Assembly: GCA_028339975.1 (NCBI GenBank)
Contig: JAOLDG010000001.1
Location: 72,740-136,739, forward strand
Length of the DNA stretch: 64,000 bases
Reading direction: 5' to 3'
DNA from: Hyphomicrobiales bacterium
Lineage (GTDB): Bacteria; Pseudomonadota; Alphaproteobacteria; MED-G09
Below are positions 4,036 to 50,048 of this stretch, piece after piece (positions within the stretch are counted from its first letter, which is position 1; every line of letters begins with the position of its first letter). The notes under the pieces are model-generated. The model searched no databases and was not told the origin of the DNA. It saw only the letters and a list, made by a program, of their open reading frames with translations. The translations under genes were made by a program, and so were the position numbers.

Positions 4036-5583
4036 ATGAAGAAAAAAATAAAAAAAAATTCCTTTTTTCGCTCAGCTTTTATTGTTAGTGGTTTAACTTT
4101 AGTTAGTAGATTTACTGGTCTTTTCAGAGATATCTTAATCAGTAATGTACTTGGTATTAGTTTTGTTGCAGATGCTTTTTTTATGGCACTGCGGCTACCA
4201 AATGTTTTTAGAAGAATTACAGCGGAAGGTGCATTCTCTTCAGCATTTATTCCAATATTTCTTAAATTTTTTTCTGGCAGTAAACACAAGGCGATAACTT
4301 TTGCCCAAGAAGTTCTTTATTTTCTAATTATTTCAATTACAGCAATAACATGCTTGCTTCAGGTTCTAATGCCTCTAGTTATGTATTTAATGGCATATGG
4401 TTTTAGCGATGATCCAATAAAATTTAACCTCACAATAATATATGCTCAGATTACTGCCCCTTATATTCTATTTATTTCATTGTCATCCTTAGGCGTAGGG
4501 ATACTCAACTCTCTGGGGAAATATTCTCTTACTTCCCTTTCGCCTATTATTTTAAATATTTTCTTAATAGTAGCTTTGTTATTACCCATTAAAGATATTA
4601 TTCTAACAGGATACATATTAGCTTTTGCTGTAACAATTTCAGGTATTTTTCAATTTGCACTAATTATTTTTGCATTAAAAAGGTCGGGTTATTCTTTAAA
4701 ATTAAAGAAACCTAAAAATTACAATAAAATAAATAAATTTTTAGATCGAGCCAAACCTCAGATTGGTAATGGCTTTGCCTTACAGGTTAATATCCTTATA
4801 TCAGGACTTATAGCATCTTTTGAACAGGGAGGAATTTCAACTCTTTATTATGCTGAACGGTTATATCAATTGCCTTTAGCACTCTTTGGCCTTTCAATAG
4901 GTACTGTATTATTACCAACTCTTAGTTCCCTAGATCCCAAAAAAGATTTGGAGGAAATAAATATTGTTATAAAAAAATCATTAAGGTTTGCTTTAATTAT
5001 GAGTATTCCATCAGCAATAGGACTTTCTATGGTTTCAATTCCATTGATTGAGGCAATATATCAACATGGACTATTTAATTCCCTGAATACTTTAATTGTA
5101 TCCAAAACTTTAATCGCATTTTCTTTTGGTTTGCCAGCATTTGTATTAATAAAAATATACCTCCCAATTTTCTATTCTTTAGGCGACACAAAAAGTCCAT
5201 TTAGGTATAGCTTGGTGTCTATTATTATTAATATGGCCTTAGCTTTACTTTTATTTCCCAAATACGGCGTTATTGGGCTGGCTATTTCAACTTCATTATC
5301 GTCATGGGTCAATCTCTTTTTGTTGATCAATAAATTGAAAGACTCAACGATATCGATCTTTTTAATGAAGCTTGATATTGACCTTTTAAAGATTATTATA
5401 GCCTCCTTTCTTATGTCACTTATAATATACTTTTGTTCAATTCTAGTGATAAATCTTAGCAGTATTTTATTTCTGTCCATTCTGATTTTAACTGGCGTAA
5501 TAAGTTATTTTTTAATTCTATTTTTGTTAGGTGTATTAAGCAAAAATGATATACCTAGTATTATTAGAAATATAATTTTTTAA
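4036..5583 (+). CDS. murJ: lipid II flippase MurJ (MviN)
   Basis: 515 aa polytopic membrane protein with a MurJ-like N-terminus (FFRSAFIVSGLTL.SR..GLFRD). Starts 2 nt after the glnD stop. Confidence 0.9.
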   Translation: MKKKIKKNSFFRSAFIVSGLTLVSRFTGLFRDILISNVLGISFVADAFFMALRLPNVFRRITAEGAFSSAFIPIFLKFFSGSKHKAITFAQEVLYFLIISITAITCLLQVLMPLVMYLMAYGFSDDPIKFNLTIIYAQITAPYILFISLSSLGVGILNSLGKYSLTSLSPIILNIFLIVALLLPIKDIILTGYILAFAVTISGIFQFALIIFALKRSGYSLKLKKPKNYNKINKFLDRAKPQIGNGFALQVNILISGLIASFEQGGISTLYYAERLYQLPLALFGLSIGTVLLPTLSSLDPKKDLEEINIVIKKSLRFALIMSIPSAIGLSMVSIPLIEAIYQHGLFNSLNTLIVSKTLIAFSFGLPAFVLIKIYLPIFYSLGDTKSPFRYSLVSIIINMALALLLFPKYGVIGLAISTSLSSWVNLFLLINKLKDSTISIFLMKLDIDLLKIIIASFLMSLIIYFCSILVINLSSILFLSILILTGVISYFLILFLLGVLSKNDIPSIIRNIIF

Positions 5584-5592
5584 GGAAATAGT

Positions 5593-6612
5593 TTGACCTC
5601 TAATAACAAAAAGAAAGTTTTTTCAGGTGTGCAGCCAACTGGTGCACTTCATCTTGGCAATTATCTTGGTGCAATAAAAAACTTTGTTAGTTTGCAAACA
5701 GATTACGATTCTTTGTATTGTATTGTAGACCTTCACGCTATTACAGTTTGGCAAAACCCCAAAGAATTGAAGGATAATATTCTCGAGGTTGCTTCTGCAT
5801 ATTTAGCTTGTGGAATTGACCCAAAAAATTCAACAATATTTGTTCAATCCTCCGTGCCACAGCATGCAGAGCTTGCTTGGATCTTTAACTGTATCTCGAG
5901 GATAGGATGGCTGAATAGAATGACTCAGTTTAAAGAAAAGGCTGGTAAAAATAAAGAAAATGTCTCTTCCGGCCTATACACATATCCAAATTTGATGGCT
6001 GCTGATATTTTACTTTATCAGGCAGACTTAGTCCCAGTTGGCGACGATCAAAAACAACACCTTGAGCTGACAAGGGATATTGCTCAAAAATTTAATAATG
6101 ACTATTCTGATTTTGGAGGGGATAATTTTTTTTCAATTCCAGAGCCATTAATTCTTTCTGGGTCCGCAAGAATTATGTCTTTGAGAGATGGTTCAAAAAA
6201 GATGTCAAAATCTGACTCATCTTCAATGACTAGGATTGAGCTTAAGGATGATAATGACTTAATTGTAAAAAAAATATCTAAAGCTAAAACAGACCCTTTG
6301 CCAATGCCAGGTTCATTAAAGGAATTAGATAGTCGTCCTGAAGTTAGAAATTTATTAAATATATTTTCATCACTCAGGGAAGAGACTGTCTCAGAAATAA
6401 TTAATGAATTTAATGGAAAACAATTTTCTGATTTTAAAAAGAATCTATCTGATCTTCTTATTAGTAAATTAGAGCCAATAAGACTTGAGCTATTAAAGAT
6501 TGAGGCTGATAAAAGTTATATTAGAGATGTTCTTTCTAATGGATCTTATAAAGCTATTGAGAAGTCGGAAAAAACTATTAAAGAAATAAAAAATATTATT
6601 GGATTAGGATAA
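5593..6612 (+). CDS. trpS: tryptophan--tRNA ligase
   Basis: HIGH-type motif (GVQPTGALHLGNYLGA) and KMSKS. TTG start with SD aaggaaa. Confidence 0.95.
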   Translation: MTSNNKKKVFSGVQPTGALHLGNYLGAIKNFVSLQTDYDSLYCIVDLHAITVWQNPKELKDNILEVASAYLACGIDPKNSTIFVQSSVPQHAELAWIFNCISRIGWLNRMTQFKEKAGKNKENVSSGLYTYPNLMAADILLYQADLVPVGDDQKQHLELTRDIAQKFNNDYSDFGGDNFFSIPEPLILSGSARIMSLRDGSKKMSKSDSSSMTRIELKDDNDLIVKKISKAKTDPLPMPGSLKELDSRPEVRNLLNIFSSLREETVSEIINEFNGKQFSDFKKNLSDLLISKLEPIRLELLKIEADKSYIRDVLSNGSYKAIEKSEKTIKEIKNIIGLG

Positions 6613-35915: not shown

Positions 35916-36179
35916 ATGGCAAATCTATCATCATCAAAAAAGATGGTTAGAAAAATTGCAACACGAACTGCAAGAAATAAGTCTCACGTTACTAATATGA
36001 GAACTTATATTAAAAAAATTGAAGAAGCTATTGCCTCAGGGAATGCAGAAGAAGCAAAATCTGCTCTAAAAGAAGCTCAGCCTAAGATAATGAGTGTTGC
36101 CCAAAAAGGTATTTTTCATAAAAATACAGCCTCAAGAAAAATATCTCGCCTTGCAAAAAAGGTTAAGAATATTTCCTAA
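35916..36179 (+). CDS. rpsT: 30S ribosomal protein S20
   Basis: 87 aa, basic. [12 protein letters not shown]...RNKS pattern of S20. Confidence 0.9.
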
Positions 36180-36403
36180 ATAATAATTTTTCTTTCTTGT
36201 TAAGGAAAAATAATAACTTTTTTTCAAAATTGTAATTTATGCTATTGCATCATAATTGATTCACCTCTAACGTGATTTTAAAATATTTTCTTTTTTCTTA
36301 GAAATTATCTTAGAAGTGGAGCCTGTTAATTTTTTTGATAGTCCATATTACGCATCTATTTTTTTATTAGGTGCAGCATTAAAATTTATATAAGGCGGTC
36401 TCA

Positions 36404-37813
36404 GTGGACGAAAAGATTTCTAAAAATGTTGATATAAAGGAAAAATGGGATCGTACCCTATCTGTTCTAAGGGCTGAGCTTGGTGAAGCAACATTTAGAA
36501 GTTGGTTTAGGCACATTGAGTTTGGTGAATTAGCTGATGAAGATCTCATCCTTTATGTGCCTACTAAATTTATGAAGGATTGGATCCATACACATTATTC
36601 GGACAGAATATTATCCATTCTAAAAAATAACTCTGCTCCAATTAAAAATATCATTATTGATCTAAAAAGTTTCAAAAAATCATCAGATTCCTCTGAGCAT
36701 ACATCTGCCAAGTCTACTTCATCATCAAATTCTGTGGAATTAAAAATTGAAGAAAAAGGGGATCATAATACTATGCTAGGAGCCCCCCTAGATCCAAATC
36801 TTTCCTTCGACAATTTTATTGTTGGCGCATCAAATGAGCTTGCTTATGCCGCCGCTAAACGAATAGCAGAAGCTGATAAAGTCTCTTTTAATCCTTTGTT
36901 TTTATACGGTGGTGTAGGGCTAGGAAAAACTCATCTTATGCATGCAATAGCACTAGAAATCAAAAAGAACTGGCCGGAAAGAAAAGTATTATACTTATCT
37001 GCTGAAAAATTTATGTATCAATTCATTCGCGCCTTAAGATTTAAAGATACCATGTCCTTTAAGCAACAATTTCGATCAGTAGATGTTCTCATGGTGGATG
37101 ATATTCAGTTTATTGCTGGTAAAGATTCTACTCAAGAAGAATTCTTTCACACCTTTAATACACTAATAGATCACAATCATCAGGTCGTGATTTCTGCAGA
37201 TAGATCTCCAGTTGACCTTGATGGTATTGAGGAGAGAATTCGATCAAGGCTAGGTATGGGCTTAGTAACGGATATTCATGCATCAGATTATGAACTCCGC
37301 CTAGGTATTCTTCAGTCAAAAGCAGAGGCGCATTTTGAAGAAAATCCTGATCTCATTATCAACGATAATATGCTCGAATTCCTTGCGCAAAGAATTGACT
37401 CAAATATTAGAGTTTTAGAGGGGGCCTTAAACAGAGTTATAGCTTATTCTTCATTTGTAGGTCGTCCTATAACAATTGATATGGCTCAAGAGGTCTTAAA
37501 AGATTTAATTCGAGCCTCACAAAGAAGGGTCACTATCGATGATATTCAAAGAAAAGTTGCTGATTATTATAATTTAAGACTGTCAGATCTTTTGTCCGCA
37601 AGACGATCAAGAACAATTGCCCGTCCTAGACAAGTGGCAATGTATTTATCTAAAATTTTAACTACAAGATCTTTACCAGAGATAGGAAGAAAATTTGGAG
37701 GAAGAGACCATACAACAGTAATCCATGCTGTTAAAAGAATAGAGGGTCTTAAGGATAATGATATAGCCATCCAAGAAGAAGTGGATGTGCTAACAAGATC
37801 TCTCGAAAGTTAA
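36404..37813 (+). CDS. dnaA: chromosomal replication initiator DnaA
   Basis: AAA+ GGVGLGKTHL, box VII, C-terminal DNA-binding domain (TTRSLPEIGRKFGGRDHTTVIHA). GTG start. Confidence 0.95.
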   Translation: MDEKISKNVDIKEKWDRTLSVLRAELGEATFRSWFRHIEFGELADEDLILYVPTKFMKDWIHTHYSDRILSILKNNSAPIKNIIIDLKSFKKSSDSSEHTSAKSTSSSNSVELKIEEKGDHNTMLGAPLDPNLSFDNFIVGASNELAYAAAKRIAEADKVSFNPLFLYGGVGLGKTHLMHAIALEIKKNWPERKVLYLSAEKFMYQFIRALRFKDTMSFKQQFRSVDVLMVDDIQFIAGKDSTQEEFFHTFNTLIDHNHQVVISADRSPVDLDGIEERIRSRLGMGLVTDIHASDYELRLGILQSKAEAHFEENPDLIINDNMLEFLAQRIDSNIRVLEGALNRVIAYSSFVGRPITIDMAQEVLKDLIRASQRRVTIDDIQRKVADYYNLRLSDLLSARRSRTIARPRQVAMYLSKILTTRSLPEIGRKFGGRDHTTVIHAVKRIEGLKDNDIAIQEEVDVLTRSLES

Positions 37814-37933
37814 TTCCTGAAGTGATTTTTATCAAATTTCTGTTATAATAATTCAATGATTCGTTTATTTTATATCTGTTAATTTATAAGTTAGTTAACT
37901 TAAATAATTTTCAGGTTAATAGGAGTGATATTT

Positions 37934-39037
37934 ATGAAGATATCAATTGATAGAGGTGTTCTTCTTAAGGCTCTTAACCATGTTCAGAGTGTTGTCGAAA
38001 GAAGAAATACGATTCCAATTTTATCTAATGTTAAAATTGCTGCTAGTGAAAAAAATATATCCCTAATAGCAACAGATTTAGACTTGGAGATAATTGAGAA
38101 AGTTGAAGCTAATGTATCACAAGTTGGTTCAACCACGGTATCAGCACATATTCTTTATGATATTGTTAGAAAAATACCAGAAGGTTCATTGATTGAAATT
38201 GAACAAAACCATGACAATCAAATGGAGTTGAAATCTGGACTATCAAACTTTGATTTACCATGCCTTCCTGATGAAGATTTCCCGGAAATGTCATCCGGAG
38301 AAATGTCATGTAATTTTAATATGAATTCAAAAGACCTTACTAGACTAATTGATAAAACAAGATTTGCAATTTCTACAGAAGAAACGCGCTACTATCTTAA
38401 TGGTATTTTTCTTCACTCCATCAATAATGAGCTTCGATCAGTTGCAACGGATGGGCATAGGTTGGCATGTATAAAGGCTGAATTACCTTCTGGTGCCGAA
38501 GAAATGCCTAGTATTATTATTCCAAGGAAGACAGTTGGTGAAATTAGAAAACTTTTAGAAGACTGTGCGGATGATTTAGTTATAAAGGTTTCCGATACTA
38601 AAATTCAATTTATTTTAAAAGATGTACAGTTAACTTCAAAGTTAATAGACGGAACTTTTCCCGACTATGAGAGAGTTATTCCTAAAAATAACGATAAAGA
38701 ACTTTCTATTGAGACGAAGATTTTCTCATCCTCAATTGATAGGGTGGCAACAATATCATCAGATAAGTCGAAAGCTGTAAAATTTTTATTAAAAGATGGG
38801 GCCTTAACACTAACTGTTATTAATCCTGATGCAGGAACCGCAGTTGAAAAAACCCCTGTAAACTATGATTATGAGGAGTTAGAAATTGGCTTTAATGCAA
38901 GATATCTTTTGGATATAGCAAGTCAAATAGACGGACAAGATATGCTTTTTGCTCTTGAAGGTTCAGGATCCCCAGCTTTGATTAAGGACTCTGATGATGC
39001 TCAAGCAACCTACGTTCTTATGCCAATGAGGGTTTGA
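37934..39037 (+). CDS. dnaN: DNA polymerase III beta sliding clamp
   Basis: MKISIDRGVLLKAL... three-domain clamp. I chose the ATG at 37934 (SD aggag at 37921-25) over the track's GTG at 37925. Confidence 0.9.
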   Translation: MKISIDRGVLLKALNHVQSVVERRNTIPILSNVKIAASEKNISLIATDLDLEIIEKVEANVSQVGSTTVSAHILYDIVRKIPEGSLIEIEQNHDNQMELKSGLSNFDLPCLPDEDFPEMSSGEMSCNFNMNSKDLTRLIDKTRFAISTEETRYYLNGIFLHSINNELRSVATDGHRLACIKAELPSGAEEMPSIIIPRKTVGEIRKLLEDCADDLVIKVSDTKIQFILKDVQLTSKLIDGTFPDYERVIPKNNDKELSIETKIFSSSIDRVATISSDKSKAVKFLLKDGALTLTVINPDAGTAVEKTPVNYDYEELEIGFNARYLLDIASQIDGQDMLFALEGSGSPALIKDSDDAQATYVLMPMRV

Positions 39038-39057
39038 TTTCAAATGGATTGTCTTAA

Positions 39058-40218
39058 GTGAATCAACATAATCCCAATAATCTCGAAGAGTTTAAATATA
39101 ACTTTAATAGAATACATTCTTTAAAACTAAAGAATTTTAGGTCTTACAATGACTTAAAATGCTCATTCAATGGAGGGCCTGTTGTTTTATTGGGATCTAA
39201 TGGATCTGGCAAAACAAATATATTAGAAGCATTATCTCTTTTATCTCCGGGTCGCGGTCTAAGGAATGCCTCTTTTGATCAATTTCGCAATATTAAGGGG
39301 CCAAACGAGTGGGGAATAATTGCTGAGATATCATCTGAAGACCAGCTTATAAAAATATCAACAGGTGTTTCTGCTGGTCGTTTAAGGGGAAGAGATGTGA
39401 AGATGAATGACAAGAAGGTAACAGGTTCTATCGCCCTACCCTCCGTTTTATCTTTGTCCTGGGTAACACCCTCTATGGATCAGATTTTTATAGAATCTCC
39501 ATCATCAAGAAGAAAGTTTTTAGATAGAATGTGTTCTTCCTTTAATAAAAAACATATTGATTCAATTAAGAATTATGAAAAGCTTATGAAAGAACGCAAC
39601 AAGCTTTTACAGGATATTTCTTTTGATAAAACTTGGCTAGAAACAATAGAATCGAGAATGGTTACTGAGGGTATTCTCATTGGGCTAACACGTATTGAGA
39701 TTCTTAAAGGTTTAAACCTAAGGCTGGAGAAAGATCAAAACCCTGTTTGGCCCCGAGCATTTTTAAAGATTCAGGGAATAATAGAAGAAGAGCTTGCCTA
39801 CAATAAAATAGATGAAGTTAGAGAGCATTATATAAAAACTTTATTTGATAATCGAAGAAAGGATTCTATTTCCGGAAGAACTTTAGAGGGTATTCACCGA
39901 AGTGACCTTCTTGTTAGTGAAAGAAATAAAGGCGTGTTGGCTAGCCAATGTTCTACAGGTGAACAAAAAGGCCTTTTACTTGGCCTTATATTGACTCATT
40001 TAGATTTAGTTGCAGAAAAATCAAATCAATATCCAATTTTACTTCTTGATGAAGTAGTTGCTCATCTTGATCAATTAAGAAGATCATCTCTTTTTGATCA
40101 AATAATTAACACAAAAGCCCAAGTTTTTATGACTGGTACAGACGCTAACTTATTTTCAGCTATTGAGGGTGCAGCTCAATTTTTTTCAGTTGGCATGGGA
40201 CGATTAAAAGAAATTTAA
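39058..40218 (+). CDS. recF: DNA replication and repair protein RecF
   Basis: Walker A GSNGSGKTN, signature/Walker B LLLDEV. GTG start. Confidence 0.9.
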   Translation: MNQHNPNNLEEFKYNFNRIHSLKLKNFRSYNDLKCSFNGGPVVLLGSNGSGKTNILEALSLLSPGRGLRNASFDQFRNIKGPNEWGIIAEISSEDQLIKISTGVSAGRLRGRDVKMNDKKVTGSIALPSVLSLSWVTPSMDQIFIESPSSRRKFLDRMCSSFNKKHIDSIKNYEKLMKERNKLLQDISFDKTWLETIESRMVTEGILIGLTRIEILKGLNLRLEKDQNPVWPRAFLKIQGIIEEELAYNKIDEVREHYIKTLFDNRRKDSISGRTLEGIHRSDLLVSERNKGVLASQCSTGEQKGLLLGLILTHLDLVAEKSNQYPILLLDEVVAHLDQLRRSSLFDQIINTKAQVFMTGTDANLFSAIEGAAQFFSVGMGRLKEI

Positions 40219-42693
<2,475 letters not shown>

Positions 42694-42706: not shown

Positions 42707-43309
42707 TTATCCGTTTATAATATTTTTTATCTTTTCAACTATAAGAGCCGATTGAATTTTTGGTGGAAAATAGTCTACAAATTCTCCATTCGCATTTGCT
42801 AAAAAAATTATATCAAGATGATTTACGGTATATTCTTCTTCTCCTTCAAGCACTTCTTTTTCGTAATAAACACCCCAGTCCTGAGCAACTTTATCAATTT
42901 CAGCCTTTGTCCCGGTTAGACCAATAATATCGCTATGGAATGCATTTACATAATTCAAAATTATATTGGGTGTATCTCTTTCAGGGTCTACAGTTATGAA
43001 AATAGAGTTAACTTTTTTTGAGTCTTCACCTAGCTTATCAATTATATCTGCCATTTTAATTAACGTTGTTGGACATACATCTGGACAATAGGTAAAACCA
43101 AAATAAATTAACATTAATTTTTCGGAAGACGCTGAATCAAATATTTTATTATTTTGGTTATTTAAAACAAAGTGACCACCGGGAAGTGAATCTTGGTTCT
43201 CAATTTGTTGAACAAGATTATTTTGATAATAATCTTTGTTAATAAAGAAATATATCGAAACAATTATGAAAATTAGGATTAAGTTTAAAAGTAAAATTTT
43301 TCTAATCAT
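42707..43309 (-). CDS. SCO1/SenC copper chaperone for cytochrome oxidase assembly
   Basis: N-terminal TM anchor, thioredoxin fold with CPDVCP (CxxxC) and a downstream conserved His. Confidence 0.8.
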   Translation of the reverse strand: MIRKILLLNLILIFIIVSIYFFINKDYYQNNLVQQIENQDSLPGGHFVLNNQNNKIFDSASSEKLMLIYFGFTYCPDVCPTTLIKMADIIDKLGEDSKKVNSIFITVDPERDTPNIILNYVNAFHSDIIGLTGTKAEIDKVAQDWGVYYEKEVLEGEEEYTVNHLDIIFLANANGEFVDYFPPKIQSALIVEKIKNIING

Positions 43310-43371
43310 GATATCCTTGTATATTATTTATTAAAGTCTTGCTATGATTTTTCTATAAGGAAATATTAATA

Positions 43372-43965
43372 ATGTCTGATATATCAAAAAGTCTTTTTTT
43401 AGAAAAAGTAATTTTTTTATTTTTTATTTTATTATGCCTAACCTCATATTCTTTAGCTCAATCCAAGAGTAATAGTCCGTTTAAAGAAGGCCTTGTGGTA
43501 TCTGCTGTTAAATCTGGAACAATGGAAGACTTGATATATTCAATTCAAGTAGGAAATTCTTCTAGCGAATTAGATTTTGATGAGGTCCCTGCATTATTGC
43601 TTGCCGTGGAAAGGGGAAGGCTGGATATGACAGTTTTTCTTTTGAATAAAGGTGCTCGAGTTAATCAAAGGGACAGCCAGAAGAGAACTGCCCTTTCAAT
43701 TGCCGCTCGTAAGAATAACGTTAGTATAGTTAATGAATTGATAAAATTTGGAGCTAAACCTGATAGGTATGGAGCAAATAAGGAAACTCCATTAATAATT
43801 GCAACGCGCTTTGGTAACTATGAATCTGTTGCAGCTCTTCTTAAAGGAGGGGCTTATCCAGATGACACTGATCTTACTGGAAGAACAGCCCTTCAGTGGT
43901 CTAAAATAAAGCATTTTAAAAGAATTGAGCAAGCACTTAAGGAATACGGAGCATATGACAACTAA
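43372..43965 (+). CDS. secreted ankyrin-repeat protein
   Basis: Signal peptide (VIFLFFILLCLTSYSLA/QS) followed by 4 ANK repeats (PALLLAVERGRLDMTVFLLNKGARVN..., TALSIAARKNNVSIVNELIKFGAKPD..., TPLIIATRFGNYESVAALLKGGAYPD..., TALQWS...). Confidence 0.75.
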   Translation: MSDISKSLFLEKVIFLFFILLCLTSYSLAQSKSNSPFKEGLVVSAVKSGTMEDLIYSIQVGNSSSELDFDEVPALLLAVERGRLDMTVFLLNKGARVNQRDSQKRTALSIAARKNNVSIVNELIKFGAKPDRYGANKETPLIIATRFGNYESVAALLKGGAYPDDTDLTGRTALQWSKIKHFKRIEQALKEYGAYDN

Positions 43966-43970
43966 TAAAG

Positions 43971-44852
43971 TTAGAAAATAATCATTCCATCAATTATAAT
44001 TAATATTAATAAAAGGCCTAATTGAATAAATGATGCAAAAAAGTTTTTCATTGCTGCTTCTTTTGTTTTATTAATGGCCAATAATAAACTAGTCCAAATA
44101 AAATATCCTCCACCAAAAATTACACCACCTAGATAAAGTAGTCCCATATTATAAGCTGCAGGTAGAAGAGATACAAAAACAAGTATAACAGTATGAAATA
44201 AAATTATATAAGTTGTTATCGAATGATTAATGATGTTTGGAAGCATTGGTATTTTTGCTTTTTTATAATCATCCCCAATTGCCATTGCAAGACTCCAAAA
44301 ATGAGGTGGTGTCCATAAAAATAGGATAACAGATAAAATTATAGCTTCAGGAGCTAAAGAAGGACTAACTGCTGCAGAACCTGCTAGTGTAGCAAAACTT
44401 CCAGCTAAACCTCCAATTACAATATTCCAAATACTTCTTCTTTTTAGCCAAACTGTATAAATGCCTCCATAAAAAAAAGCTCCAAGAAAATTATAGAAAG
44501 CAGAGAATGGATTTAGTATAAAATACGACAATATTAAACCACTGAAAATTATTAAGGCAAATATAATAAGCCAAATTGGATTCGGATTTAGCCTTCCTGT
44601 GACAAAAGGTCGCTCAGATGTTCTTGGCATCAGAGCATCAATATCTCTTTCAAAGTACTGATTAAATGCACTAGCACCAGCTGATGCTAGAAATGTAGAT
44701 AATGATAATATGAATATTTCAAACCAATTTAGCGAATTATTTGGCATAATAAAAACGCCAGAAATAGCACATAATGTTATAGTTAGGCTTATTCTAACCT
44801 TAAAAAGATTTATTAGTAATTTAAAAAAAGGAAACATAAAATAATTACTCAA
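43971..44852 (-). CDS. ctaB: protoheme IX farnesyltransferase (heme O synthase)
   Basis: UbiA-family polytopic protein with NQYFERDIDALMPRTSERP motif. Confidence 0.9.
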   Translation of the reverse strand: MSNYFMFPFFKLLINLFKVRISLTITLCAISGVFIMPNNSLNWFEIFILSLSTFLASAGASAFNQYFERDIDALMPRTSERPFVTGRLNPNPIWLIIFALIIFSGLILSYFILNPFSAFYNFLGAFFYGGIYTVWLKRRSIWNIVIGGLAGSFATLAGSAAVSPSLAPEAIILSVILFLWTPPHFWSLAMAIGDDYKKAKIPMLPNIINHSITTYIILFHTVILVFVSLLPAAYNMGLLYLGGVIFGGGYFIWTSLLLAINKTKEAAMKNFFASFIQLGLLLILIIIDGMIIF

Positions 44853-45078: not shown

Positions 45079-45927
45079 ATGAGGATTTTTATGGTACCTT
45101 TTATTCTTATAGTTTTGATCATTGGGTCAGTACTTTTTCATATTTTTACTCCTTGGTATTCAACCCCAATTGCTTCGAATTGGTCTAACATTGACAGCAC
45201 AATCGAGTTAACTTTTTGGATGACTGGTGCTGTGTATGTTGCTGTGCTTGGCTTTATGACATACTGTGTTATTCGCTTTAAAAATAAAGAGGGTCAAAAA
45301 GCTGCTTATGAACCTGAAAGTAAAAAAGCTGAAGTTATTCTTACTGTCTTAACAACAATTGGTGTTGCTGGTTTATTGGCCCCCGGCTTAATTGTTTGGG
45401 ATGATTATGTCTCTCCACCTGAAGATGCAATGCCAATTGAGGCGATGGGTCAGCAATGGTATTGGAGTTTTCGTCTTCCTGGAAAAGATGGCATTTTAGG
45501 CACAACTGATGCAAGGAATATTAATGCTGATAATCCGTTTGGAATGAATAAAAATGATCCGAACGGCCAAGATGACATCTTAATTGAAGGTGATGACTTG
45601 CATTTAGAACATGAGAAGCCTGTTAAATTTTTATTAAGATCAATAGATGTTTTACACAATTTTTATGTTCCTCAATTTAGAGCCAAAATGGATTTAGTAC
45701 CAGGTATGGTAACTTTTTATTGGATTAGGCCAACTGTTGCTGGAAATTACGAGATTTTGTGTGCTGAGTTATGTGGTGTAGGCCATCATGCGATGCGTGG
45801 TTATGTTCAAGTCGATAATGCTGATGACTATCAAACATGGCTGAATGATCAATCAACATTTAAAGCATTACAAGAACAAGCAAGGCTAGAAGATAAAAAA
45901 GAATTAGCCTTTAACAAAAGTAAATAA
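45079..45927 (+). CDS. coxB: cytochrome c oxidase subunit II (CuA; no fused cytochrome c domain)
   Basis: Two N-terminal TM helices, cupredoxin domain with CuA ligands H...CAELCGVGHHAM. Confidence 0.85.
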   Translation: MRIFMVPFILIVLIIGSVLFHIFTPWYSTPIASNWSNIDSTIELTFWMTGAVYVAVLGFMTYCVIRFKNKEGQKAAYEPESKKAEVILTVLTTIGVAGLLAPGLIVWDDYVSPPEDAMPIEAMGQQWYWSFRLPGKDGILGTTDARNINADNPFGMNKNDPNGQDDILIEGDDLHLEHEKPVKFLLRSIDVLHNFYVPQFRAKMDLVPGMVTFYWIRPTVAGNYEILCAELCGVGHHAMRGYVQVDNADDYQTWLNDQSTFKALQEQARLEDKKELAFNKSK

Positions 45928-45947
45928 TTAGGAAGAGGTCTTTAACT

Positions 45948-47726
45948 ATGTCAGAATCTATAATACCGGAAAGTGAATTAGAGGAAGTTGAACTTTACCA
46001 TGCAAAAAGCTGGTGGACAGAAAAGGTTTTCACCCAAGATGCAAAATTAATTGCAATTCAATATGGGTTAACAGCCTTTGCTATTGGCTTTGTTGCTCTT
46101 GTCTTGTCTTGGTTTATGAGAATTCAAATTGCCTTTCCTGAGCTGTCTATTATTAGTGAAGGAACTTACTACCAGTTCATTACAATGCATGGGATGATTA
46201 TGGTTGTATATCTTCTTACTGCCTTATTCTTAGGAGCATTCGGTAACTATATGATACCACTTATGGTCGGGGCAAGGGATATGGTATTTCCATATTTAAA
46301 TATGGTGAGTTATTGGACTTATTTAGTTGCTGTTTTAGTTTTATTTGTTAGCTTCTTTACTCCCGGAGGGCCAACAGGAGCCGGATGGACACTTTATCCT
46401 CCACAAGCGATTCTAGGCGGGACTCCTGGTCAAGAGAGTGGAATTATTCTTATGCTAGTCTCACTTTGCATATTCATTGTTGGCTTTACAATGGGCGGTC
46501 TAAATTATGTTATTACTATACTTCAAGCGCGAACAAGAGGAATGACTCTTATGAGAATGCCTTTAACAGTATGGGGTATTTTTACAGCAACAGTATTAGC
46601 GCTCTTTGCTTTTCCAGCTCTTTTCGTAAGCGCTGTTATGATGCTATTTGATAAAATCTTATTAACAAGCTTTTTTATGCCTGCGCTAGTTGAGTTTGGA
46701 GAAAATTTAACCTATGGCGGAGGTAGCCCTATTTTATTCCAACATCTTTTTTGGTTTTTTGGTCACCCTGAGGTTTACATTGTTGCTCTGCCAGCCTTTG
46801 GAATAGTGTCTGACTTAATTTCGATTCACGCCCGTAAAAATATTTTTGGTTTTAGGATGATGGTTTGGGCTATTGTTGGTATTGGTGCACTTAGCTTTAT
46901 TGTTTGGGCTCATCATATGTATGTAAGTGGTATGAACCCATACTTTGGTTTCTTTTTCGCTACAACAACGCTTATTATTGCTGTTCCTACGGCATTGAAA
47001 GTTTATAATTGGATCTTAACTCTATGGAAAGGTAATATAAATTTAACAATCCCAATGCTATTTTGTCTTGGCTTTATCGTTACATTTTTAAATGGCGGTC
47101 TAACTGGACTTTTTCTTGGTAACGTCATTGTCGATGTTCCTCTCTCCGATACATACTTTGTAGTGGCCCACTTTCATATGGTTATGGGTATTGCTCCAGT
47201 CTTAGTAATATTAGGCGCCATATACCATTGGTTTCCTCTTATTACAGGTAAAATGCTTCATGAGGGTATGGGACGGTTCCATTTTTGGGTAACTTTTGTT
47301 GGTTCATACTTAATCTATTTCCCAATGCACTATTTAGGTTTTATTGGCGTTCCAAGACGATATTATGAGATGGGACAAACTGAAGCTCTCTACACATCAT
47401 CAGCAGCTGACCTTAATGTTTTTATTACTCTAGCGGCTCTCGCCGTTGGATTTGCTCAGCTTGTTTTTATCTTTAATGTTTTTTGGAGTGCTAAGAGAGG
47501 TATTATTGCAGAAAAGAATCCTTGGAATGCAACTTCTTTGGAGTGGCAAACTCCGGAGCAACCTCCTATTCATGGTAACTTTGGCAAAGAACTTCCAGTG
47601 GTCTATCGTTGGGCTTACGACTACAGTGTTCCAGGCGCTGAGGATGATTATATTCCCCAAGATGTTCCTAATGAAGATGTTAAATTAGCTGACGGTTATT
47701 CAGAGCTAGGAGTAGAAAAAACTTGA
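45948..47726 (+). CDS. coxA: cytochrome c oxidase subunit I
   Basis: 12+ TM, heme/CuB ligands (WFFGHPEVYI, HHMY...), 592 aa. Confidence 0.95.
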   Translation: MSESIIPESELEEVELYHAKSWWTEKVFTQDAKLIAIQYGLTAFAIGFVALVLSWFMRIQIAFPELSIISEGTYYQFITMHGMIMVVYLLTALFLGAFGNYMIPLMVGARDMVFPYLNMVSYWTYLVAVLVLFVSFFTPGGPTGAGWTLYPPQAILGGTPGQESGIILMLVSLCIFIVGFTMGGLNYVITILQARTRGMTLMRMPLTVWGIFTATVLALFAFPALFVSAVMMLFDKILLTSFFMPALVEFGENLTYGGGSPILFQHLFWFFGHPEVYIVALPAFGIVSDLISIHARKNIFGFRMMVWAIVGIGALSFIVWAHHMYVSGMNPYFGFFFATTTLIIAVPTALKVYNWILTLWKGNINLTIPMLFCLGFIVTFLNGGLTGLFLGNVIVDVPLSDTYFVVAHFHMVMGIAPVLVILGAIYHWFPLITGKMLHEGMGRFHFWVTFVGSYLIYFPMHYLGFIGVPRRYYEMGQTEALYTSSAADLNVFITLAALAVGFAQLVFIFNVFWSAKRGIIAEKNPWNATSLEWQTPEQPPIHGNFGKELPVVYRWAYDYSVPGAEDDYIPQDVPNEDVKLADGYSELGVEKT

Positions 47727-48343
47727 GTATATTTAGCACATTATCACAAAAGCCTTGGATGGCAGATCAAGCGGCGATCGATAATAATCATATCGGTCAA
47801 GCAGTATCAATGCCCCTTCCAAGAGTTGCACTATATGTCTTGATGGCTGTAATTGGTGTTTTGTTTTCATTGTTTTCAGTAGCCTATATAGGCAGAATGG
47901 CTTATGGCGATTGGCGAACTTTACCAGAACCCACATTACTTTGGTTGAATACAGCTATAATTATGTTAAGTAGTATTTCCTTTCACCAGGCTACTAAAAA
48001 TGCAAAAGAAAACCAAATTAAAAGGTCTCGCGAATATCTTTTACTTTCTGGTGTCTTAACTTTTGGTTTTATTGTGGGACAGCTTTTTGTTTGGCGTGAA
48101 TTAGTTTCTTTTGGTTATTTTGCTTCAACTAATCCATCTTATGCCTTCTTTTATTTGTTAACGGCCTTGCACATACTTCATTTAGCCGGTGGTCTAATTG
48201 CTTGGACAGTCGTAACCATTAAAAGTTTTATTCCACAAAAGGAAACTTCCGATTTCGCTCTTAAGGTTAATCTTTGTGCAGTTTATTGGCACTTTTTATT
48301 AATTGTATGGGCACTTTTATTTACTATGCTTTTGTTAACATAA
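47723..48343 (+). CDS. cytochrome c oxidase subunit III-like protein (short, 5-TM paralogue)
   Basis: FFYLLTALHILHLAGGLI...VYWHFLLIVW resembles the C-terminal helices of COX3. TTG start overlapping the coxA stop. Confidence 0.6.
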   Translation: MSIFSTLSQKPWMADQAAIDNNHIGQAVSMPLPRVALYVLMAVIGVLFSLFSVAYIGRMAYGDWRTLPEPTLLWLNTAIIMLSSISFHQATKNAKENQIKRSREYLLLSGVLTFGFIVGQLFVWRELVSFGYFASTNPSYAFFYLLTALHILHLAGGLIAWTVVTIKSFIPQKETSDFALKVNLCAVYWHFLLIVWALLFTMLLLT

Positions 48344-48367
48344 ATTCGATTTTTAATAGGATGTAAT

Positions 48368-49075
48368 TTGATGAGTACTACTTCAAAAATACCGCTTAAG
48401 GATGGCGTAGAAGGTTTTGTTTCTGATTGGTCTTCTGATCAAAGGGCTTTTAAGGGAGTACCTTGGGGCAAAGCCATGATGTGGATATTTCTTTTAAGTG
48501 ATACCTTTATTTTTAGTATCTTTTTGATTTCCTATATGACCGCAAGATGGTCGACAGTAGAGCCCTGGCCTAATACTAGTGAGGTGTTTTCACTTACAGT
48601 TAATGGTGTAAGCGTTCCCCTTCTCTTAATTGCCATTATGACATTTATTTTAATTACTAGCAGTGGAACAATGGCTATGGCTGTTAGAAGTGGCTATCAA
48701 AAGAAAAGAAAGCAGGCGGGAGCGCTATTGCTCTTAACTGCTATCTTAGGGATGTCCTTCGTTGGAATGCAAATGTTTGAGTGGAGTAAGCTAATATCTG
48801 AAGGTATCCGTCCTTGGGAAAATCCATTTGGAGCAAGACAATTTGGTTCTGTCTTTTTTATGGTAACGGGTTTCCATGGTGTTCATGTTTCTGTTGGTGT
48901 ATTATTTTTATTTCTTACATCTAGAAAAGTTTTCCGCGGTGATTACGATACGGGGCGCAGAGGATTTTTTACATGGCAAAAAGGACGCTATGAGATTATA
49001 GAAACACTTGGTTTATATTGGCATTTTGTTGATCTAGTTTGGGTCTTCATTTTTGCTTTTTTCTATCTTTGGTGA
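48368..49075 (+). CDS. coxC: cytochrome c oxidase subunit III
   Basis: Canonical COX3 blocks: MFEWSKL, FFMVTGFHGVHVSVG, YWHFVDLVWVFIF. Confidence 0.8.
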   Translation: MMSTTSKIPLKDGVEGFVSDWSSDQRAFKGVPWGKAMMWIFLLSDTFIFSIFLISYMTARWSTVEPWPNTSEVFSLTVNGVSVPLLLIAIMTFILITSSGTMAMAVRSGYQKKRKQAGALLLLTAILGMSFVGMQMFEWSKLISEGIRPWENPFGARQFGSVFFMVTGFHGVHVSVGVLFLFLTSRKVFRGDYDTGRRGFFTWQKGRYEIIETLGLYWHFVDLVWVFIFAFFYLW

Positions 49076-49083
49076 GGTAAATA

Positions 49084-49500
49084 ATGGCACAAGAAGAACA
49101 AGAAGGACAAGAACATCCTATTAGCACATACCTATGGGTATGGTTATTGCTGTTTGTATTGAGCGCATGTTCTTATTATGTTGATTATGCTGGGTTTCAA
49201 GGTTTTACACGTTGGAGCTTAGTACTCCTATTTATGTTTTTAAAAGCTTATTTTATCTGTGCAGTCTTTATGCATATGGTTTGGGAAAGAATGGCTTTGG
49301 TTTTAGCCTTATTTATTCCAACCTTTGCAATTATAGTTTTTGTAGGAATTATGGGCTTTGAATCTGATTATACACAGTTGGGACGTAAAGTATTTTTTGA
49401 TACAGGCAAGCCACCAACAGTTTATGCGGTCCCACATAGTGAGGCTCACAATGATACTCATTCGGATGGCGATGCTCATTCTGATGAGGATGAGCATTAG
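49084..49500 (+). CDS. small 3-TM oxidase subunit (prokaryotic CoxIV/CtaF-like) with His/Asp-rich C-terminal tail
   Basis: Three predicted TM helices with a FMHMVWER block like bacterial subunit IV. Tail HSEAHNDTHSDGDAHSDEDEH. Confidence 0.5.
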   Translation: MAQEEQEGQEHPISTYLWVWLLLFVLSACSYYVDYAGFQGFTRWSLVLLFMFLKAYFICAVFMHMVWERMALVLALFIPTFAIIVFVGIMGFESDYTQLGRKVFFDTGKPPTVYAVPHSEAHNDTHSDGDAHSDEDEH

Positions 49501-49514
49501 ATTAAGTTATAAAT

Positions 49515-50048
49515 ATGTATAAAACACTCTTAATTGCTGTAATAATTTTACTAGCCCCTCTTTCGTTGCAGGCTAAAAATACTAAGTTTATGGACGAAAT
49601 TAATAGGCTTGCTAGTGAAGGGTATGTTGATGCTCAATATAACTTAGCGCGAATATACTCTAATGGTGAATCTGTTGATCAAGATTTAGAGTTAGCGGCT
49701 TATTGGTTTCTTCAGGCTGCAGAAAAAGGTAATAGAGATGCACAGCATCAGCTTGCGAGAATGTTTGAAAAAGGATTTGGTTTAGAAATGGATCTCAAAG
49801 AGGCATTTAACTGGTATAAGCTATCTGCTGAACAGGGTAGTATAGAATCCCAATACAGTCTCGGGTTAGCTTATAGATTTGGTATTGGTGTTGATCAAAA
49901 TTTTACCCAATCTTTGAGATGGTATAAGTTATCTGCCTCAAAAGGACATAGCGGGTCTCAATATAATCTTAATCTTCTATACGAGGAAGGACTGGCAACA
50001 AGAAAAGATATTTCTGATGCAATTAAATGGTATAGGTGTGGAAGATAA
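49515..50048 (+). CDS. secreted Sel1-like repeat (TPR-like) protein
   Basis: Signal peptide (LLIAVIILLAPLSLQA), then about 4 Sel1 repeats (AQYNLARIY..G.GV.QD...A..W...AA..G...AQ..L). Confidence 0.75.
   Translation: MYKTLLIAVIILLAPLSLQAKNTKFMDEINRLASEGYVDAQYNLARIYSNGESVDQDLELAAYWFLQAAEKGNRDAQHQLARMFEKGFGLEMDLKEAFNWYKLSAEQGSIESQYSLGLAYRFGIGVDQNFTQSLRWYKLSASKGHSGSQYNLNLLYEEGLATRKDISDAIKWYRCGR

Follow-up and report, generated by a model that had tools for sequence, protein, structure and literature searches.

Which of its neighbours does an exported ankyrin-repeat protein serve when its gene lies between a copper chaperone gene and a heme synthase gene? The question is raised by a 64,000-nucleotide (nt) stretch of a Hyphomicrobiales genome (contig JAOLDG010000001.1; hereafter the window). 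In it, an ankyrin-repeat open reading frame (ORF) stands between genes for SCO1/SenC and heme O synthase (ctaB), with a cytochrome c oxidase (cox) operon beyond. A first-pass annotation, made from the sequence of the window, took this position as a sign of a role in oxidase biogenesis. We find that the two sides of the gene differ in history. The SCO1 side is ancient and stable, and the ctaB side is derived and incidental. The stable unit is senC, divergent from the ankyrin gene, which is usually followed by regB and regA either directly or after one further gene; the heme O synthase link is not conserved. The protein, which may be soluble or membrane-tethered, is an ancient, vertically inherited part of the Parvibaculales senC (Sco1)/regB-regA locus. 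The senC-ankyrin association is robust but limited to one order. The mechanism that we propose for it, an adaptor for SenC, is tentative.

The ankyrin gene and its family

43372..43965, plus strand: ankyrin-repeat ORF of 197 amino acids (aa), from ATG to TAA, with matches to Pfam Ank families, 65 close homologues and orthologues in Parvibaculales.
43474..43962, plus strand: five ankyrin repeats (residues 35-197) with a 33-residue period, from the AlphaFold model and Foldseek.

The ORF is a real gene, and its domain assignment is far above chance. Five Pfam families match it, all beyond their curated cut-offs: Ank_2 (E-value 7.7e-20; 71.7 bits against a cut-off of 27.3), Ank (3e-18; 65.3 bits against 21.1), Ank_4 (5e-14), Ank_3 (2e-12) and Ank_5 (1e-9). 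The protein is a bona fide member of the ankyrin repeat superfamily (PF00023/PF12796).

An AlphaFold2 model was built from 14 family sequences, with a mean predicted local distance difference test score (pLDDT) of 86. It has a lone N-terminal helix (residues 2-30), a disordered linker (about 27-40) and then repeats at 35-67, 68-100, 101-133, 134-166 and 167-197, with a period of exactly 33. The helix pairs at 41-59, 74-92, 107-125, 140-158 and 173-191 mostly have pLDDT above 90. In the model, the layout is an N-cap, three internal repeats and a C-cap. The first-pass annotation is supported in placing a probable signal peptide before ankyrin repeats, but had counted four of these and not five. 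In Foldseek, five-repeat designed ankyrin repeat proteins (DARPins) superpose on the model with a root-mean-square deviation (rmsd) of 1.3-1.5 A over about 152 columns. The structure search of the PDB returned generic or designed ankyrin domains only, and a sequence search of the PDB, which matched hundreds of ankyrin chains, was again generic or designed.

Among curated NCBIfam models the family has no representative. The best scores were for MzaA (50.2 bits) and AnkH (49.4 bits), at or below about 50 bits where the cut-offs are 450-1400, so these matches reflect the shared repeat alone. On these scores the protein does not qualify as a Legionella/Coxiella Dot/Icm ankyrin effector or as MzaA.

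A scan of species-representative genomes found homologues in metagenome-assembled genomes (MAGs) and single-amplified genomes of PS1/OCS116, carrying the labels Rhodobiaceae, PS1 clade and OCS116, and so assigns the window to this marine clade, within Parvibaculales. The cultured isolate IMCC14465 is a distant member. A profile search widened the family to Parvibaculales-labelled MAGs and Parvibaculum, and orthologues occur throughout Parvibaculales at loci with 32-65% GC. All members have 180-216 aa, an N-terminal hydrophobic segment and the motif (T/S)D(L/R)TGRTAL, with xW after it as a rule. Outside this family, the matches are to generic ankyrin proteins of greater length.

Ankyrin repeats are most abundant in eukaryotes, and the best NCBIfam matches, far under their cut-offs as they are, include Legionella effectors. 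Both points fit a recently acquired, eukaryote-like gene, which the first-pass annotation had offered as its alternative. Composition and descent refute such a transfer on the very signs named by the first-pass annotation, gene position and GC. The gene has a GC content of 0.357 and a third-position GC content (GC3) of 0.242, the same as gyrB, recF, coxB and other neighbours, in a window of 0.34 GC. Its position is kept in close relatives and across the order. Compared with orthologues from related genomes, the nonsynonymous divergence (dN) is 0.14-0.39 and the synonymous divergence (dS) is saturated near 2, giving a dN/dS of about 0.06-0.23. A Sec signal peptide is also not effector architecture. 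The gene is native, purifying selection acts on it, and we give recent transfer next to no credence.

Pairing with senC

42707..43309, minus strand: SCO1/SenC copper chaperone, membrane-anchored at its N-terminus (PF02630, 5.4e-44).
43310..43371: spacer of 62 nt between the divergent SCO1/senC and ankyrin genes, defined by their coordinates.

The translated SCO1/SenC gene carries the CPDVC and VNH motifs and the conserved His. By tblastn, 55 loci were searched for the window proteins and for RegB, RegA and an AurF-like protein taken from related loci, and the gene calls were read. An opposite-strand SCO1/SenC gene lies upstream of the ankyrin gene in 44 of the 45 family loci that include upstream DNA, at less than 500 nt in 43 loci; L055 alone lacks it. 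The pair holds over ankyrin identities of about 32-86% to the window protein and over the whole span of locus GC. By comparison, SCO1 was nearby in none of three generic ankyrin control loci outside the family (L042-L044). A check proposed by the first-pass annotation, for an ankyrin gene beside ctaB and SCO1 across related genomes, has a split outcome: SCO1 is a nearly constant neighbour, but ctaB adjoins directly only in loci with 76-86% ankyrin identity.

The surroundings of the pair are variable. Beyond SCO1 there are at least four kinds of neighbour: gyrB; a class A penicillin-binding protein (PBP) gene; leuA or a RelE/helix-turn-helix toxin-antitoxin pair; and a beta-lactamase-family gene. 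After the ankyrin gene there are at least seven arrangements: ctaB; an AurF-like gene; an amidase gene and an AurF-like gene; regB; a metallo-beta-lactamase (MBL)-fold gene and then regB; mmcB and then inverted regA-regB; and bioB. Because the partners differ on both flanks, the senC-ankyrin pair survives rearrangement.

The rpsT-dnaA-dnaN-recF-gyrB block next to the locus is conserved in most Parvibaculales loci. This leaves room for another explanation, in which the protein is a clade-specific periplasmic ankyrin with a non-respiratory role, for example at the envelope or in host or particle interaction, and senC is a neighbour by frozen synteny near the origin. In many members the locus does lie within the dnaA-dnaN-recF-gyrB block. 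The class A PBP gene is often nearby, and it comes directly before the ankyrin gene in the most divergent member (L055). Parvibaculum-like loci and L054, however, are outside the origin block and have different flanks, yet keep senC, the divergent ankyrin gene and regBA together. We consider frozen synteny quite unlikely.

The gene is transcribed apart from both of its window neighbours. The sequence AAGGA stands 11-15 nt 5' of the ankyrin ATG. The spacer showed no sigma-70 consensus, though the scan is uninformative in such AT-rich DNA, where promoter-like sites were fewer than in shuffled sequence. On the other side, the ankyrin gene and ctaB are convergent, with stop codons 5 nt apart (43963-43973), and the same promoter and terminator scan detected no terminator-like hairpin between them. 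With stops this close and no hairpin, the two transcripts would overlap at their 3' ends. Being divergent from SCO1 and convergent with ctaB, the ankyrin gene is its own transcription unit and forms no operon with either.

Downstream arrangements and the regB-regA genes

43971..44852, minus strand: heme O synthase ctaB/cyoE (TIGR01473, 2.8e-80, above cut-off).

The first-pass placement of the ORF between SCO1 and heme O synthase is confirmed by the family matches of both neighbours. What follows the ankyrin gene depends on lineage (identities are those of the ankyrin protein):

Lineage a, window-like low-GC PS1, 76-86% identity: ctaB directly, then the cox operon.
Lineage b, sister PS1 subclade, 52-63% identity: a 376-aa AurF-like diiron gene, sometimes an amidase gene, then ctaB-cox.
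Lineage c, IMCC14465-like genomes and several Parvibaculales MAGs, about 32-39% identity: a histidine kinase gene 1-4 nt past the ankyrin stop, then a response regulator gene.
Lineage d, Parvibaculum-like, 38% identity: an MBL-fold gene, RegB-RegA and, further on, an AurF-like gene.
Lineage e, L054, 36% identity: mmcB, then inverted RegA-RegB; the flanks are wholly different.
Lineage f, L033, 42% identity: bioB.

In lineage b, 1.2-2.6 kb of unrelated genes separate the ankyrin gene from ctaB, and in all other Parvibaculales no ctaB or cox gene lies within 8-10 kb of it. The suggested role in an oxidase biogenesis cluster thus stands in part: the associations do point to respiratory copper and redox machinery, but the link to ctaB and cox is lineage-specific.

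In lineage c, the kinase of locus L039 is RegB/PrrB/ActS (NF033792, 1e-163) and the regulator is RegA/PrrA/ActR (NF033791, 3e-93). RegB and RegA in other loci were assigned by tblastn match to this pair. The ankyrin stop is 1-4 nt from the regB start in six loci (L004, L008, L039, L049, L051 and L052). RegBA lies less than 2 kb from the ankyrin gene in every lineage except the low-GC PS1 subclades, L033 and L055, and does so even where it is inverted (L054). Published work on species with group-1 RegBA describes cotranscription of senC with regA and/or regB as invariable (PMC9147068). This linkage, together with RegBA at the Parvibaculales loci, identifies the SCO1 gene here as the SenC of that locus.

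These data also fit a reading in which the protein is a periplasmic accessory regulator of RegB/PrrB, comparable to the Sel1-repeat protein ExoR acting on ExoS or to CpxP acting on CpxA. The proximity of SenC would then be the known senC-regBA linkage, and the window lineage would have either a leftover protein or one acting on a relocated RegB. The spacing in the six loci implies co-translation and one operon, and the wide recurrence of RegBA beside the gene speaks for the same partner. Set against this, some 30 loci in two PS1 subclades have no local regBA, yet purifying selection there has kept the gene together with the signal peptide and the conserved surface patch. The 64-kb window contains no regB or regA. 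Among the 120 nearest RegA homologues, none had the amino acid composition expected of low-GC PS1 genomes, a weak indication since thousands of conserved RegA proteins compete for these places. RegB exposes only short loops to the periplasm. We regard a dedicated RegB regulator as a possible but somewhat unlikely explanation.

The AurF-like gene suggests how ctaB came to adjoin the ankyrin gene. The protein has 375-376 aa and a match to PF11583 (6e-7) just under the cut-off. It is found at L020-L031, L038 and L040 (e.g. L025, 10593-11723, minus strand) and at L046 (14198-15322), and in subclade b it lies between the ankyrin gene and ctaB. In Parvibaculum-like loci, regBA is followed after a few kb by a gene whose product is 67% identical to the subclade b protein; the window has no such gene. 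This common gene suggests that the low-GC PS1 lineages lost regBA and its neighbours between the ankyrin gene and aurF, and that the window subclade later lost aurF too, leaving the ankyrin gene against ctaB. The window gene is descended from a member of the senC-regBA locus and now stands in an incomplete one.

Export and the conserved surface

43372..43458, plus strand: predicted Sec-type signal peptide, residues 1-29, with cleavage between SLA and QS, from the hydrophobic core, the small-x-A|Q site and the N-terminal helix of the AlphaFold model.
43795..43899, plus strand: conserved family-specific surface patch, residues 142-176, with the motif GAYPDDTDLTGRTALxW, from an alignment of 26 orthologues.

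The N-terminus has an n-region of residues 1-12 with two Lys, a 12-residue hydrophobic core at 13-24 (VIFLFFILLCLT; mean Kyte-Doolittle value 3.2) and S-L-A|Q at positions 27-30, the bar marking the predicted cleavage. A comparable core and small-x-A|Q site occur in 22 of the 26 orthologues, and the N-terminus of the window protein contains no lipobox. Sec export is well supported by this conservation. Cleavage probably follows Ala29, although the segment may instead remain as an uncleaved signal anchor. In either case the repeats are predicted to face the periplasm.

Conservation was scored over the 26 orthologues, which are 26-80% identical to the window protein. Most of the columns with at least 85% conservation belong to the ankyrin framework; those that do not are I142, R146, T166, T169, R171 and W176. 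Within the patch, I142, R146, T166, D167, T169, R171 and W176 are invariant or at least 85% conserved. In repeats 4 and 5, R146, T166, T169 and R171 are at repeat positions 13, 33, 3 and 5. These positions belong to the target-binding surface of natural ankyrin domains and are among those randomized in DARPins. The patch is intact in lineages in which regBA has gone from the locus. Its pattern reads as the signature of a protein-binding module with a single partner kept across the order.

Unlike the patch, potential metal or heme ligands are not kept. Cys is missing altogether from the mature window protein, and the alignment of the 26 orthologues shows no conserved column of His or Met. The one family-wide Tyr, Y162, is Asp in Parvibaculum-like members and so leaves no conserved candidate heme ligand. 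Pfam and NCBIfam gave no match of the protein to the PCuAC, Cox11, Sco or Surf1 families. A copper or heme ligand role was rejected as the primary reading for want of a conserved ligand. Copper carriage by the protein itself is, on the same residues, very unlikely.

The first-pass annotation had reasoned from AnkB of Pseudomonas, a periplasmic ankyrin needed for full catalase activity, that the protein might chaperone heme or copper insertion into oxidase subunit I or II. The position of the window gene between SCO1 and ctaB, beside a CuA-type oxidase operon, suits such a factor for heme (O/A) or copper. Ankyrin proteins of P. aeruginosa and Campylobacter jejuni are also reported as needed for catalase activity, probably through heme binding (PMC7567364). 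The position is, however, peculiar to low-GC PS1 subclades and interrupted in the sister subclade, and the gene is convergent with ctaB and not co-transcribed with it. No catalase gene is adjacent, and the recurrent partners are only SenC, a copper/thiol protein, and RegB/RegA. Together with the lack of conserved Cys, His or Met, the Asp at Y162 and the lack of similarity to PCuAC, Cox11 or Surf1, these points give the AnkB precedent no specific support. An insertion chaperone, which could be argued here by analogy, seems to us decidedly improbable.

Proposed mechanism

We tentatively propose a five-repeat periplasmic ankyrin adaptor whose binding partner is SenC/Sco1 or a SenC-client complex, and we put the chance that partner and role are so at a little short of even. 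The Sec pathway would export the protein. Binding to a partner protein in the periplasm would be through the conserved concave face on repeats 4 and 5 (R146, T166, T169, R171 and W176). The likeliest partner is membrane-anchored SenC/Sco1, at its thioredoxin-fold domain, or a SenC-client complex. The adaptor would position or stabilize SenC in copper/thiol handling for the CuA-containing oxidase, and would itself carry neither metal nor heme. Where RegB is kept, the adaptor may also connect the kinase with SenC or with the oxidase. In the streamlined low-GC lineage, where regB-regA has gone from the locus and ctaB-cox now adjoins, the SenC-ankyrin pair and the patch were retained. Sco proteins are known to act by transient periplasmic contacts, with PCuAC/PccA, CoxB and cbb3 oxidase (PMC7558416).

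Several observations weigh against a SenC adaptor. It is to regB and not to senC that the ankyrin gene is tightly coupled, stop codon to start codon, which suits RegB as a partner at least as well. At one locus (L033/P0069), two Sel1-repeat genes stand between SCO1 and the ankyrin gene, and L055 has neither SenC nor RegBA near its orthologue. Gene order kept within one order can be partly inheritance and not selection. The signal-peptide n-region of the window protein has a net charge of 0, and cleavage was read from the sequence layout. Loss of regBA from the genome of the window organism is only weakly indicated, by the composition of RegA homologues.

At L055, a DSBA-family gene beside the orthologue was considered as encoding a second thioredoxin-fold periplasmic partner. 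It was rejected, since the product has no signal peptide and no CxxC.

A variant would join the two candidate partners. The ankyrin protein could be a periplasmic coupling subunit of SenC/RegB that binds the Sco1-type chaperone and relays its copper/thiol state, or the state of the oxidase, to RegB, and would serve as a SenC adaptor for CuA oxidase assembly where RegBA has been lost. We think this variant unlikely. If it were true, it would supply a protein link for the long-discussed signal from oxidase/PrrC to PrrB, at least in one order.

The protein matters because Sco/SenC is the meeting point of oxidase copper delivery and RegB/PrrB redox signalling. As an exported, probably protein-binding module encoded between senC and regB across the order, it offers a candidate, open to test, for a physical link between them in the periplasm. 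Its order, Parvibaculales, includes abundant marine PS1/OCS116 plankton and the cultivable IMCC14465 and Parvibaculum.

Comparison with known systems

The closest known arrangement is the senC-regA/regB (prrB-prrC-prrA) locus of Rhodobacter and others, in which, as in Parvibaculales, a Sco1-family gene is linked to RegB/RegA (PMC9147068). In Parvibaculales, senC is alone on one strand, and the unit on the other strand, ank-regB-regA, begins with the gene for the exported ankyrin protein. The window differs further in that regB-regA is missing from the locus and ctaB-cox is in its place. Full-text searches of the literature found no paper linking ankyrin repeats to SenC, RegB, Sco1 or Parvibaculum in this way. 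The senC-regBA locus is thus already known, and the exported ankyrin component added to it is apparently unreported.

The second comparison is with ankyrin proteins linked to catalase. AnkB of P. aeruginosa (katB-ankB; described as periplasmic), Cj1386 of C. jejuni and ank-katE of Leptospira are reported to be encoded beside a redox metalloenzyme and to be needed for its full activity (PMC7567364). The logic in common with the window protein is a small accessory ankyrin scaffold for a metalloprotein. Those genes are co-transcribed with catalase and linked to heme, whereas the constant partner of the window protein is a copper/thiol chaperone. A catalase gene was found neither among the scanned window ORFs nor in related loci. 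A tblastn search of plasmids for a catalase-linked ankyrin gene returned only generic ankyrin matches, namely an Ideonella gene by a pyrroloquinoline quinone (PQQ) dehydrogenase gene, a 529-aa Thermus protein and a Ralstonia match. If the proposal for SenC holds, this would be a second context, after AnkB and Cj1386, for exported ankyrin scaffolds working with metalloprotein machinery.

The Ideonella gene (L056; Ideonella dechloratans plasmid NZ_CP088082.1, 694199-694867) encodes a 222-aa ankyrin protein with 32% identity to the window protein over 94% of its length. It is divergent from genes for a PQQ-dependent dehydrogenase of the methanol/ethanol family and a c-type cytochrome. This is possibly a further case of an ankyrin gene that adjoins genes for periplasmic redox enzymes.

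PCuAC/PccA is the soluble periplasmic partner of membrane-anchored Sco in copper delivery to the oxidase (PMC7558416). Its fold is a beta-barrel that holds an H(M)x10Mx21HxM copper site, whereas the ankyrin protein is an alpha-solenoid. Without conserved metal ligands, the ankyrin protein cannot chemically replace PCuAC.

In fold, the protein is the same as DARPins and ANKRA2 (template modelling score 0.72-0.76, rmsd 1.3-1.7 A, about 150 residues). The conserved non-framework residues of the family sit at DARPin target-binding positions. DARPins and ANKRA2 share 25-32% identity with the window protein and are artificial or cytosolic, unlike the window protein with its signal peptide and GAYPDDTDLTGRTALxW motif.

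Other genes in the window

45079..49500, plus strand: heme-copper cytochrome c oxidase operon with coxB, coxA, two COX3-like genes and COX4_pro, from Pfam and NCBIfam matches.

The cox operon is context and lies outside the conserved ankyrin module. For annotation, the apparent membership of the ankyrin gene in an oxidase cluster in the window is a by-product of genome streamlining, with no operon relationship. The coxB translation has a complete CuA motif (CAELCGVGHHAM). Among the scanned window ORFs there is no PCuAC, Cox11 or CtaA gene, and the cluster also lacks surf1.

Directly upstream of the locus, rpsT-dnaA-dnaN-recF-gyrB occupies 35916-42693 on the plus strand, and cumulative GC skew rises steadily. 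From this gene block and the skew, the ankyrin locus is presumed to lie beside the replication origin region.

The two COX3-like genes are consecutive (47723-48343 and 48368-49075, plus strand) and encode proteins of 206 and 235 aa with 22% mutual identity. The first follows coxA with an overlap of 4 nt, and COX4_pro comes after the second. This subunit layout resembles that of alternative oxidases of the coxMNOP type. COX4_pro (49084-49500, plus strand) encodes 138 aa in the window compared with 129 aa in related loci. Its roughly 25 C-terminal residues are rich in His, Asp and Glu (PHSEAHNDTHSDGDAHSDEDEH), which suggests a metal-binding or acidic tail.

A Sel1-repeat gene begins 14 nt after COX4_pro (49515-50048, plus strand; 177 aa; PF08238, 2e-35). 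The N-terminus of its product resembles a signal peptide (MYKTLLIAVIILLAPLSLQA, then K), and the protein has weak NCBIfam similarity to ExoR, MotX and MerG. The gene closes the cox operon in all loci of PS1 subclades a and b (44-81% identity). At L033, an alphaproteobacterial MAG locus (STY4_bin_10, 45% GC), the two Sel1-repeat genes encode 438 and 218 aa (positions 4321-6301). Their 38% identity to the window Sel1 protein may be repeat consensus alone. With these L033 insertions, Sel1 and ankyrin repeat genes recur around senC. As an exported repeat protein truly within the oxidase operon, the product of the window Sel1 gene is a better candidate than the ankyrin protein.

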